Below are positions 3,001-6,000 of a DNA stretch of 44,385 bases, piece after piece. The stretch is taken from assembly GCA_039679545.1 (NCBI GenBank), contig JBDKUT010000108.1, positions 1 to 44,385 of the forward strand. Reading direction: 5' to 3'. Position 1 is the stretch's first letter. Every line of letters begins with the position of its first letter. A program made the position numbers. Origin of the DNA: Thermotogota bacterium. GTDB taxonomy: Bacteria; Bipolaricaulota; Bipolaricaulia; UBA7950; UBA9294.

Positions 3001-6000
3001 TTGATTCATCGGCGTTCCTCCCTATCGTCCGATCGCTCGGCTCGCTCCTTCGATCAACAGCTCCGCGATCTCATCCACGGTCGCTTCACGGCAGTCCAGG
3101 CTCGGTCGCACGAGGATGTCCGCGCTCGGCAGCCGCTCCACGTTCGCGCGAAAGGCCTCGCGGATCCTCCGCTTGGCGCGGTTCCTCTCCACCGCCGTCC
3201 CGTACTTGCGCGAGATGACGATTCCAAGGCGAGGGCCTTCGGCCCTCGGAAGGACGTGAAGAGCAAAACACGCCCCGGACCACGTCGCGCCCTTTCGGAA
3301 GACCCGGAGGAAGTCCGTGCGTTTCTTGAGGCGCATCGCGACCGGGAAGCGGCTTCCGCTCCCGTCAAGCATGCCGGTACTATAGTGTCAAGCCCGCTGG
3401 CTTTCAAGGTTAGCGACATCGTCGCTGAGGCCGGACACCAACACTCCGGCCCGGTACACTCTCGACGATTCGTATGGCCGAAGAGTACGTCTACACCGTA
3501 TCGGAGCTGAACAGGACCGCCCGGGAGATCGTCGAGGGCGGCCTGGGAGGCGTCTGGGTAAAGGGAGAGGTCTCCGAGATCTCGCACGCCAGCTCGGGCC
3601 ACATGTACTTCACCCTGAAGGATCCGAGCGCCGAAGTGAGCGCCGTACGCTTCCGGGGCCGGTCGCCGATCCTCTCCGCCATCGAACCCGGTACCACGGT
3701 CCTCGCGTTCGGCAAGGTTACGATCTACGAGCCGCGAGGCCGGTACCAGTTTGTCGCCACCCTCGTTCAGCCTGTCGGCGCCGGCATCCTTCAGGCGGCA
3801 TTCGAGCGGCTCAAGCAGAAGCTCCAGGCCGAGGGGTTGTTCGACCCGGAGCACAAGAAGCCGATTCCCGCCTACCCGACGCGGATTGGTGTCGTAACGT
3901 CGCCGACCGGAGCGGCTCTCCACGACATCGTCTCGGTGTTGTCACGGCGGTGGCCAATATCCGAGGTTCTCCTCTTCCCGTCCTCCGTGCAGGGAGATGC
4001 GGCGGCCGAGGAGCTCGTCGCCGCCCTCGATCGCGCCATCCAGTTCTCGCAGACCAGCCAGCCGCTCGACCTCATTCTGATCGGACGAGGGGGAGGGGCC
4101 GCCGAGGACCTCGCGCCGTTCAACGACGAGCGCCTGGCCCGCGCCGTGTATGCGTCTCCGATCCCTGTCGTATCGGCGGTGGGCCACGAGATCGACTTCA
4201 CCATGGCGGACTTTGTCGCCGACCTCCGAGCGGCGACGCCGACGGCGGCGGCCGAGCTCGTGACCCCCGACGCTTCCGACGTCGCAGGACAAGCAGCACG
4301 ATGCGTCGACCGCGCAACCCGCGCGCTGTACGATCGCTTGGCGGAGTGCGAGTTGCGGCTCCAAGCCGGCCTCCGTCGCCCGCTGTTCCGGACTCCAAGC
4401 CGCCTCCTCGAGACGGCCGAGCAGCGACTCGATCTGCAGGTGGTAGCCCTGGGTCGCGCCCCCAGGCGAACGCTTGCACGGCCGCACGAGCGGCTGGCTC
4501 GGCTGGATGCGGTCCTTCGGCTGTCGAGCCCCACGCGGCCCCTCGAGCGCGGGTTCTCCATCACGTACGCCGACGGGACGTCGCGCCCGCTCCGAGATGC
4601 CCGTTCGGTTACCCCCGGAACGCACATCACGACCCGGCTTGCCAAGGGTCGACTCACGTCGTCGGTCGAGGAGGTGGACGAGGAGTGAAGATCGAAGAAA
4701 CGCTGGAGAAACTCGAGGAGATTACCTCCGCGCTTGAACGCGAGGACATCCCGCTCGACGAAGCGATCGCCCTGTTCGAGCAGGGGCTCACCCTAGCGGC
4801 GTCCGCGAAGACGGCGCTCGACGAGGCGCGCCTCAAGGTCTCGAAAGTTGTTGAGAAGGCAAAAGGTGTGCTCGACCTCGAGCCTTTTGACGTTTCGTAG
4901 CGCTCTCCTATAATCGCAGCCATGACCGAGACGGTGGCTCGCCACGACGTGGTCATTGTGGGCGCCGGCCCGGCGGGGATGACGGCGGCGGTGTACGCGG
5001 GGCGCGCCCTCCGCTCGACGCTCGTCATCGAGAAGGGAATCCCGGGCGGACAACTCAACGAAACCGATCGCATCGAGAATTGGCCGGGCTTCGCAGAGCC
5101 GGTTTCGGCGCCGGACCTCATGGCGACGCTCCGAAGCCAGGCCGAGCGCCTCGGCGCGGAGTTCGTTCAGGATGAAGTGCTCCGGGTTGAACCCGGTCGA
5201 CGGATCCATCGCGTCGTGGCTTCGTGTCGCACAGTCGAAGCGAGGGCCGTCATTCTGGCTCCGGGGGCGCGGCCGCGTGAGCTTCCCGCCGAGGGGGCCG
5301 CGCGTCTCAAGGGAAGAGGCGTGTCCTACTGCGCGACGTGCGACGGGTTCTTCTTCCAGGGCAAGCGGGTCGTTGTGGTCGGAGCGGGAGACTCCGGACT
5401 GATGGAGGCGCTCTTTCTGACGCGTTTTGCAGACTCGGTTTCGATTGTCGTTCGTCACCCGAAGGAGGATCCGCGGGCGATCCGAGCCTCGAGGGTGCTG
5501 CGGCAGCGAGCCGAATCGCACCCGAAGATCCGCTTCCTGTGGAACCGGGAGGTCGCGGAGGTGGTGGGCGACCGAGGCGTAACCTCGATTCGACTTCGGC
5601 GCCTCGACGACCGAGGCGTCGAAGACGTCCCCGTCGACGGGATCTTCGTCAGCGTGGGGCACCTGCCGGAGACGGAGTTCCTTCGCGGCAGCGTTCCCCT
5701 CGATTCGGACGGGTACATCGCCACCGATTCCCGCCTGCGCACATCGATCCCGGGGATCTTCGCTGCGGGGGATGCACGAAGGGATGCCCACCGTTATGCC
5801 CAGGCCGTCATCGCGGCCGGGGAGGGCGCGACGGCGTCCCTCGAAGCCGAGCAGTACCTCGCCGAGTAGTTCGGTCGGGCGCCGAGGCGTAGAGAGCCCA
5901 ACAGCAGCAAGGGAGGATGAGGCCGATGTACCCAGCGGTGTCGAAGCTGTTCGAGGAGGCGGTGGAGGCCCACAAGGATCGGATCGCTCTGTGCATGCCG

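Follow-up and report, generated by a model that had tools for sequence, protein, structure and literature searches.

The ribosomal protein bL34 binds early during assembly of the large subunit, in which it lies buried. Nearly all bacteria have it, and in many of them its gene, rpmH, is found just upstream of rnpA. The protein has been described as binding H26, with another contact written as H103. Natural losses of bL34 outside tiny-genome symbionts have so far been reported for only two lineages (bioRxiv 10.1101/2021.01.31.429008): the Halanaerobiales, where rpmH was lost together with L30 and S21 from genomes of 2.5–4.0 Mb, and some Planctomycetes. In tiny genomes, bL34 is among the ribosomal proteins that are frequently lost, according to sections of PMC7782861. 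A report on the large subunit of Hodgkinia describes weak or no density at nine of 10 predicted-missing proteins, bL34 being among the nine (bioRxiv 10.64898/2026.10.18.759926). Laboratory strains of Escherichia coli and Bacillus subtilis tolerate deletion of rpmH, and additional magnesium rescues them (work cited in the same sections of PMC7782861).

Here, we describe the absence of bL34 from a genome of the order UBA7950, a label that belongs to Acetothermia/Bipolaricaulota in the part of PMC9586279 that deals with it. The window is a whole stretch of DNA of 44,385 nucleotides (contig JBDKUT010000108.1 of assembly GCA_039679545.1). Judging from the passages cited above, the Halanaerobiales are similar in 1) having genomes of free-living size (~1–4 Mb in the phylum studied here), 2) missing the same three proteins, and 3) having their loss mapped to the base of a clade by comparative genomics and six-frame checks. 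They differ in that a single loss occurred there, basal to a halophilic order, whereas here uL30 and bS21 are gone phylum-wide, the state of bL34 changed at least three times, and the proteome of our genome is not acid-shifted (median pI of 6.0). Some Planctomycetes offer a further natural loss of L34 at ordinary genome size. The tiny-genome symbionts have ribosomes working without bL34, as would the lineages studied here, but they have undergone extreme erosion, with many ribosomal proteins gone, while the genome studied here has 2.35 Mb and an otherwise intact S10-spc-alpha cluster. From the E. coli and B. subtilis deletions, as cited, it follows that cells can do without bL34 and that magnesium offsets the defect, which is the basis of the tolerance we propose here. 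Those strains, however, were engineered and grow poorly, and are not evolved lineages. A preliminary description of this locus had presented a natural bL34-less bacterial ribosome as new. Since bL34 loss is already published for Halanaerobiales, some Planctomycetes, and tiny-genome symbionts, and is known in other free-living bacteria, our genome adds a further case to a kind of ribosome that had been described before. We found no literature pairing L34 with Acetothermia or Bipolaricaulota in the portions of the sources searched, and the supplement of PMC12641178 (158 mentions of rpmH and one Bipolaricaulota genome) may bear on this.

Results

The preliminary description had placed rnpA beside a divergent xseA gene about 100 bp away, and this arrangement is borne out by the annotation of the locus (Table 1). 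RnpA passes the PF00825 cut-off of 22.3 with a full-length match (profile positions 1–103 of 109). Exonuclease VII is identified by an OB-fold (PF13742) and an Exonuc_VII_L domain (PF02601) in one protein, followed by a small-subunit gene (PF02609). The 101-bp gap leaves no room for a 44-aa L34 gene, and no Rfam family was found in it. The candidate promoter was found once, against a mean of 0.1 over 50 shuffles, and since only 6 nt separate its end from the ATG of rnpA, this gene is predicted to be transcribed from its own start, probably as a leaderless mRNA. The gene order rnpA-greA-lysS is kept phylum-wide, as judged by eye in five of five relatives (families f2, f3, f4, f8, and f10), and a blastn search of rnpA against E. 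coli genomes gave no match.

Table 1. Features at the rnpA-xseA locus (positions in the window)
Feature	Position	Strand	Evidence or remark
lysS, lysyl-tRNA synthetase	1045-2514	-	PF00152, E 1.9e-85
greA, immediately downstream of rnpA	2530-3009	-	PF01272, PF03449
rnpA, RNase P protein subunit, 116 aa	3022-3372	-	PF00825, E 1.2e-27, 96.6 bits, residues 9-108
Divergent intergenic gap rnpA/xseA, 101 bp	3373-3473	.	No L34-like frame
Candidate sigma-70-like promoter of rnpA, TTGAAA-17-TATAGT	3379-3407	-	Motif search and sequence reading
xseA, exonuclease VII large subunit, 404 aa, divergent from rnpA	3474-4688	+	PF02601, E 2.9e-86; PF13742, E 2.6e-24
xseB, exonuclease VII small subunit, 71 aa	4685-4900	+	PF02609, E 2.6e-15; GTG start overlaps xseA stop

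We searched for bL34 using the Ribosomal_L34 profile PF00468, which has 44 positions and a curated cut-off of 25 bits. In the source assembly (2.35 Mb in 163 contigs, 93.55% complete), none of the 43 candidates scored exceeded the cut-off, and the best one, at 16.8 bits, is a frame that is interrupted by a TGA and runs antisense to a PGI gene. A lineage-specific profile, built from 20 L34 sequences of families f3 and f10 and run with --max over every six-frame ORF of 15 aa or more in this genome (53,988 in total), returned only noise (best 15.3 bits, E 0.042). Across the order UBA7950, no genome out of 78, own included, gave a match over the PF00468 cut-off (best 20.7 bits); 28 of these genomes combine a completeness of 90% or more with a contamination of 5% or less. 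The five best subthreshold matches of the order were considered as remnants and rejected, being Arg-rich alternative frames. Both profiles in our own genome, and PF00468 in the order, thus confirm the earlier statement that no bL34 is found in this genome or in the 78 genomes of the order.

Extending the search to the whole phylum showed matches over the cut-off in 50 of 184 genomes, namely 47 of 50 in f3 and three of four in f10, and in none of the 130 genomes, own included, of the nine other families (f1, f2, f4–f9, and f11). When the phylum is restricted to the 71 genomes within the same quality limits (completeness of 90% or more, contamination of 5% or less), L34 is present in 23. Two claims of the preliminary description are therefore kept in part: f3 does keep L34, but it is not the only family to do so because f10 also keeps it, and loss in UBA7950 stands but is not special to the order, as absence spans nine families. 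Where L34 is kept, it scores 60–81 bits, and in f3 it is fully canonical, whereas no score in the order exceeds 21 bits. As previously noted, 10 of 10 bacterial control genomes were positive with PF00468. The even shorter L36 (38 aa) was found both in our genome (C54:5176-5286(-), 71.4 bits) and in 178 of the 184 phylum genomes, including 126 of 130 in the L34-less families (125 of 129 plus our own), which upholds the argument that short genes are detectable by this approach.

All the phylum genomes are draft metagenome-assembled genomes (MAGs), save two of f3. Three L34-less assemblies (G012, G177, and G162) consist of 20–30 contigs and contain full-length 23S rRNA. A single-contig L34-less assembly (G023) was considered as a closed genome but rejected, being 69% complete by markers, with a 254-nt piece of 23S rRNA and a split ribosomal protein cluster. 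In one f3 genome without an L34 match (G096), a contig ends within infB, and the miss is explained by this break since rpmH is found beside infB in f3. Indeed, in 19 of 19 f3 loci, rpmH is followed by infB, lying 13–40 nt upstream of it (IF-2 was confirmed by Pfam), while at the one f10 locus it lies upstream of an M48 peptidase gene. In none of the five relatives examined is rpmH upstream of rnpA. The empty canonical place upstream of rnpA, which had been put forward as an argument for loss, is therefore uninformative since L34-keeping relatives have no rpmH there either. rpmH was not lost from beside rnpA, its place in the sister family being beside infB. In our genome, a UDG gene lies upstream of infB, separated by a gap of ~120 bp with a promoter-like site, and no remnant of rpmH was found there. 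Nor was there any L34-like frame upstream of infB in nine L34-less representatives (f1, f2, f4–f9, and f11), where the best score was 6 bits.

Besides bL34, two other ribosomal proteins are missing: uL30 was found in one of the 184 phylum genomes and bS21 in none. In line with this, a blastp search with E. coli L30 (E 1e-3) found no L30 in the rpsE-rplO span of 39 clusters (41 were fetched, and two incomplete ones were left out). Compensating extensions in the 27 S10-spc-alpha proteins were rejected, median lengths being equal in the L34-keeping and L34-less groups. A crude gene call based on codon usage yielded 2,593 ORFs in our genome, 512 of them no longer than 100 aa, of which 48 are basic. 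It recovered L28, L33, and L35 (by Pfam) and L36, L29, S14, S18, and S20 (by eye). Four small basic ORFs have no Pfam match at E ≤ 1, two of them on a phage-like 7-kb contig, and a fifth (86 aa) has only a subthreshold match. A 34-aa Lys-rich ORF (G000:C134:16185-16286) was considered as a substitute for L34 and rejected; it does not track the loss since it occurs in L34-keeping f3 (six of 50 genomes) and was not found in seven L34-less families.

To place these observations on a species tree, we used 27 proteins in a PMSF tree (24 rows by 2,800 columns) and in a FastTree (42 rows by 4,215 columns). In the PMSF tree, f3 is the sister of f1 + f2, which make up the order (SH-aLRT 100), and f10 is the sister of four L34-less families, f7 + f8 + f9 + f11 (SH-aLRT 99). 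Both placements are found in the FastTree. The outgroup is E. coli alone, which is distant, seven rows (E. coli and six of the ingroup) have deviant amino acid composition, and the positions of f4, f5, and f6 are unsure. Forcing the L34-less rows into one clade, and with it a single loss, was rejected in an AU test under LG+F+G4, a site-homogeneous model and the only one used for it (delta lnL of 233, p-AU of 4.9e-58). By parsimony, the pattern of L34 presence and absence takes a minimum of three changes of state, and since the L34-less families do not form one clade, at least three changes are needed in the phylum.

Discussion

In this phylum, six-frame searches find L34 in no member of a clade whose close relatives retain it, and we consider it very probable that rpmH has truly been lost from our genome, the whole order, and seven further families. 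The reading of the absence as an evolutionary loss, already proposed in the preliminary description, is supported over failure of detection or assembly by the contrast between 60–81 bits in the sister family and <21 bits in the order, together with the L36 control. That rpmH might be present but systematically missed during MAG assembly or binning is a concern raised by the 163 contigs and the incompleteness of our genome and by the f3 genome that lost the rpmH region at a contig end. This is hardly credible when L34 is found in none of 130 assemblies and the shorter L36 in 126 of the same, when f3 MAGs of similar fragmentation are L34-positive in 47 of 50 cases, and when the infB neighborhood is assembled and empty in our genome and nine other L34-less genomes. 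An improbable reading, albeit less so, is that bL34 is still made, either diverged past detection by profiles or replaced by an unrelated small protein at its site on the 50S subunit. Absence from a profile search is negative evidence only, and small basic ORFs belonging to no family do exist, including the conserved Lys-rich one. However, starting from the canonical L34 of the sister family, a fall below 21 bits would be needed independently in at least three lineages, and the lineage-specific profile finds nothing in our genome. A substitute is further disfavored because the Lys-rich ORF does not follow the loss, because other basic ORFs without a family lie on the 7-kb phage-like contig, and because the S10-spc-alpha proteins show no change of length between groups.

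How the absence of bL34 came about is a separate question, for which repeated independent loss is most likely. The alternative is that the ancestor of the phylum had already lost rpmH, in one early event, and that f3 and f10 regained it by horizontal transfer. Parsimony counts three changes either way, and the neighbors of rpmH differ between the two families, infB in f3 and the M48 peptidase gene in f10, with rpmH nowhere by rnpA, so synteny is no proof of vertical descent. Two regains of a gene for a 45-aa core ribosomal protein are nevertheless a priori less likely than loss of a protein that is dispensable in the laboratory, and the L34 proteins of f3 and f10 are very alike, although L34 is too short and conserved for a tree. 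On balance, we regard regain as unlikely, with repeated loss taking most of the rest. Regain also agrees with a genome without rpmH, and its weight applies to the history alone and is not to be added to that of loss.

With rpmH gone, these bacteria would assemble 50S subunits that lack bL34, in ribosomes from which uL30 and bS21 are missing as well. Since laboratory deletions of rpmH are tolerated and rescued by magnesium, at least in the passages cited above, bL34 would be needed little under conditions that do not limit assembly speed or rRNA stability, which is how we infer that the ribosome copes.

Growth temperature, for which the G+C content of 23S rRNA can stand as a proxy, provides a weak lead. 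This G+C content is 0.602–0.630 in eight of eight L34-keeping genomes versus 0.514–0.597 in 15 of 15 L34-less ones, the gap between the groups being 0.005 and the independent contrasts only two to three. E. coli keeps L34 at 0.534, and by the IVYWREL protein index two f3 rows (G096 and G083) rank among the L34-less rows. From this correlation, we propose that loss followed a move to cooler habitats. It is doubtful, though conceivable, that bL34 is a conditionally needed staple, kept only with the most G+C-rich, thermophile-like rRNA on a ribosome lacking uL30 and bS21, and dropped independently at least three times in cooler habitats. If so, the phylum would provide sister lineages that are matched but differ in having bL34, a natural experiment on its role in the rRNA fold. 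In 23S alignments of 15 and then 24 sequences, two columns (E. coli 1587 and 2867) initially told the groups apart, but convergent change was rejected: column 2867 fails with more genomes (C in G174 of f10 and G in G182 of f11), column 1587 is within a poorly aligned loop, and zero to three separating columns were also obtained with 13 pseudo-partitions shaped like the real one. Halophily as an enabling condition, by analogy with the Halanaerobiales, was also rejected. Over 1,778 ORFs, the median pI is 5.96, with 11.8% D+E and 10.6% K+R, and because the proteome is not acid-shifted, it gives no indication of a salt-in lifestyle.

Of the 184 species representatives in the phylum, 130 (about 70%) are without bL34 while close sister families keep it, which offers replicated pairs with and without the protein for comparative structural work on rRNA cohesion. 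In addition, since PF00468 is systematically missing from L34-less genomes, marker sets that count it will underestimate their completeness.

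L34 is undetectable in nine families of the phylum

Our search of the own genome (a 2.35-Mb draft in 163 contigs, 93.55% complete, 65% G+C) with the Pfam profile of L34 (PF00468) scored 43 candidates, the best of which, at 16.8 bits, is interrupted by an internal TGA and sits opposite a PGI gene. Across order UBA7950 (families f1 and f2), none of the 78 genomes, own included, passed the 25-bit cut-off (top 20.7 bits), and the five best sub-threshold matches proved on inspection to be alternative frames rich in arginine, located within long ORFs or opposite them. A lineage profile built from the 20 f3 and f10 L34 proteins that came with fetched loci (20 of 50 matches), run unfiltered over all six-frame ORFs of the own genome that are 15 aa or longer (53,988), gave a noise-level best score of 15.3 bits (E 0.042). 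The absence of L34 from genome and order, as claimed in the preliminary description, is thus borne out. That description also had L34 kept by sister family f3, which stands (47 of 50 genomes) but is incomplete: f10 keeps it as well (3/4), and absence spans the nine remaining families (0/129 genomes, plus none in the own genome). Clear L34, at 60 to 81 bits, is therefore found in 50 of 184 phylum genomes, and the loss is broader than the order.

Could so short a gene have been overlooked, or have dropped out of draft assemblies? The 38-aa L36 gene, already offered as a control for the own genome, is present in 178/184 phylum genomes, including 125 of the 129 from L34-less families, plus the own genome, showing that the method does not miss short genes and the assemblies do not drop them. 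Full-length 23S rRNA is found in L34-less assemblies of only 20 to 30 contigs (genomes G012, G177, and G162). We rejected the one-contig, L34-less G023 as a finished genome, given its marker completeness of 69%, a 254-nt 23S piece, and a split r-protein cluster; the stretch fetched from this 1.73-Mb contig (C1) has no S10-spc genes upstream of secY, and G023 represents an odd assembly or else a genome that is rearranged. We consider the loss of bL34 very probably real.

In f3, rpmH adjoins infB, not rnpA

The loss had been argued partly from the classical place of rpmH upstream of rnpA. As described, no L34 gene lies beside rnpA in the window and a divergent xseA is close by, the gap offering neither space nor frame for a 44-aa L34 gene (see table). 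The argument itself does not hold, since this linkage is absent in the phylum. In f3, infB follows rpmH on the same strand in 19/19 loci (IF-2 confirmed by Pfam), with 13 to 40 nt from the rpmH stop to the first IF-2 alignment in 17 loci and an alignment beginning at residue 106 in the other two, while an M48 peptidase gene comes after rpmH in the one f10 locus examined. On a 1.70-Mb contig of G083, a finished f3 genome, rnpA maps to 76 kb and rpmH to 1,639 kb. By eye, five relatives (f2, f3, f4, f8, and f10) show greA and lysS after rnpA, as in the window; none of the five has rpmH upstream of rnpA, and the upstream genes vary.

At infB, no L34-like frame was found upstream in the own genome, where infB is preceded by a UDG gene and a gap of ~120 bp holding its own promoter-like TTGACG-17-TATAGT (spotted by eye). 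Nor was there any rpmH remnant upstream of infB in nine L34-less representatives (f1, f2, f4 to f9, and f11; top 6 bits). G096 is among the three f3 genomes in which L34 was not found; there the contig start cuts infB, exactly at the expected place of rpmH.

The rnpA-xseA gap holds a sigma-70-like TTGAAA-17-TATAGT (one found versus 0.1 expected) ending 6 bases before the rnpA ATG. From this spacing, rnpA is probably transcribed alone, as a leaderless mRNA. Both rnpA and infB are preceded by near-consensus -35/-10 pairs ending in TATAGT.

Features of the window (contig C108) and of other contigs of the own genome
Feature	Location	Strand	Remarks
rnpA, RNase P protein, 116 aa	window 3022-3372	-	PF00825, E 1.2e-27
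Stretch preceding rnpA	window 3373-3407		-35/-10 pair
Intergenic gap, 101 bp	between rnpA and xseA		one sigma-70-like site
xseA, exonuclease VII large subunit	window 3474-4688	+	PF02601, E 2.9e-86
xseB	window 4685-4900	+	PF02609; follows xseA
~60-aa ORF	window 7641-7829	+	paralog on C160
Six tRNA genes	window 21651-22235	+	RF00005, 60-75 bits
Small basic ORF	C4:1612-1773		family-less
Small basic ORF	C4:6289-6447		family-less
L36 gene, 38 aa	C54:5176-5286
Lysine-rich ORF, 34 aa	C134:16185-16286	-	locus L114; beside 274-aa ORF
infB	C149:5050-6828		IF-2 by Pfam
~60-aa ORF	C160:32059-32232	-	paralog in window

bL34 was probably lost more than once

From 40 genomes and from own contig C54 we retrieved the S10-spc-alpha r-protein cluster and extracted orthologues of 27 proteins, the annotated cluster of E. 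coli K-12 serving both as query and as outgroup. Both a FastTree phylogeny (42 rows by 4215 columns, the G023 and G145 rows only ~30% filled) and an IQ-TREE LG+C20+F+G4 PMSF tree of a subset (24 rows by 2800 columns) place f3 as sister to f1+f2 (SH-aLRT 100 in the PMSF tree) and f10 as sister to f7+f8+f9+f11 (SH-aLRT 99, likewise); f4, f5, and f6 are placed differently by the two. These trees have a single distant outgroup and seven compositionally deviant rows (E. coli and six ingroup). On the PMSF tree, L34 state changes at least three times. Grouping all L34-less rows as one clade was rejected, being 233 log-likelihood units worse (p-AU 4.9e-58, AU test under LG+F+G4 only). Loss of bL34 was probably recurrent in the phylum; three separate losses would account for the changes, as would a single loss followed by two regains.

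Other missing proteins and possible compensation

uL30 was detected in 1/184 genomes, namely G139 of f6 (75% complete), and bS21 in 0/184, so the phylum as a whole is without uL30 and bS21, and most of it also without bL34. An E. coli L30 query (blastp, E 1e-3) detected no L30 gene in the 39 fetched clusters spanning rpsE-rplO; the other two of the 41 fetched, from G023 and G145, span only secY to rplQ. No length shift between L34-keeping and L34-less rows was seen in the 27 cluster proteins. Within the phylum, S14 (rpsN; clusters L033-L072) has short (~61-65 aa) and long (~97-102 aa) forms, the median form being short in L34-less rows and long in f3/f10. Scanning aligned 23S rRNAs for columns that are constant wherever L34 is kept and differ in every L34-less genome yielded two, no excess over pseudo-partitions, and the better one broke down with more genomes.

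In the own genome, a crude gene call picked up the known small r-proteins and left four ORFs without a Pfam match at E<=1, plus a fifth with a sub-threshold match only. Two of the four sit on the 7163-bp contig C4, all of whose ORFs share one strand and, by eye, look phage-like; this contig may represent a small virus or a provirus that was binned with the genome. A conserved 34-aa lysine-rich ORF without Pfam family was found, using the own-genome query, in 39/73 f1 genomes plus own and 6/50 f3 genomes, and in none of the remaining families.

23S G+C is higher where L34 is kept

In columns shared with E. coli, 23S G+C is 0.602-0.630 in 8/8 L34-keeping ingroup genomes (one sequence partial) and 0.514-0.597 in 15/15 L34-less ones (four partial), despite the 65% G+C of the own genome. 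Growth temperature is tracked by rRNA G+C. By IVYWREL fraction of the 27 proteins, f3/f10 rows fill the top 7 of 41, with two f3 rows among the L34-less rows. We hypothesize that L34 retention is tied to temperature-linked 23S G+C, a comparison of two to three independent contrasts with E. coli as counter-example outside the phylum.

Several 23S genes exceed the usual 2.9-3.0 kb by 0.4-1.6 kb: L096 (G162, 4568 nt), L095 (G149, 3979), L107 (G182, 3941), L090 (G172, 3745), L106 (G168, 3658), L098 (G170, 3507), and L097 (G177, 3382). In some, the Rfam match is split near model position 2045. This points to introns or intervening sequences. G170 has additional fragmented 23S copies.

Natural bL34 loss is known from other bacteria

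A natural bL34-less bacterial ribosome had been presented as new, but this lineage is not the first to have one. According to bioRxiv 10.1101/2021.01.31.429008, which surveys non-essential r-proteins by COG, five of six Halanaerobiales (2.5-4.0 Mb genomes) are without rpmD, rpmH, and rpsU, and the sixth without rpmD and rpmH; the missing trio L30/L34/S21 is common to both groups. A halophile analogy is unsupported because the own proteome is not acid-shifted. PMC7782861 lists bL34 among proteins often lost in genomes below 1 Mb and cites work in which magnesium offsets its absence. For the Hodgkinia large subunit, a 2026 preprint reports weak or no density at 9/10 predicted-missing protein positions, bL34 among those nine (bioRxiv 10.64898/2026.10.18.759926). 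Very few ribosome biogenesis factors are reported in Bipolaricaulota, from one genome (PMC12641178). Our phylum name follows the placement of a UBA7950 genome in Acetothermia/Bipolaricaulota, as given in PMC9586279. Our searches found no literature linking L34 with Acetothermia or Bipolaricaulota. The phylum adds to natural bL34 loss, a known kind, a new case that is large and well replicated.

Elsewhere in the window, six tRNA genes (Rfam) lie within ~585 bp, and a ~60-aa ORF shares the motif SIYIPKSK...NYL[IV]VEAI.QY with its paralog on C160.
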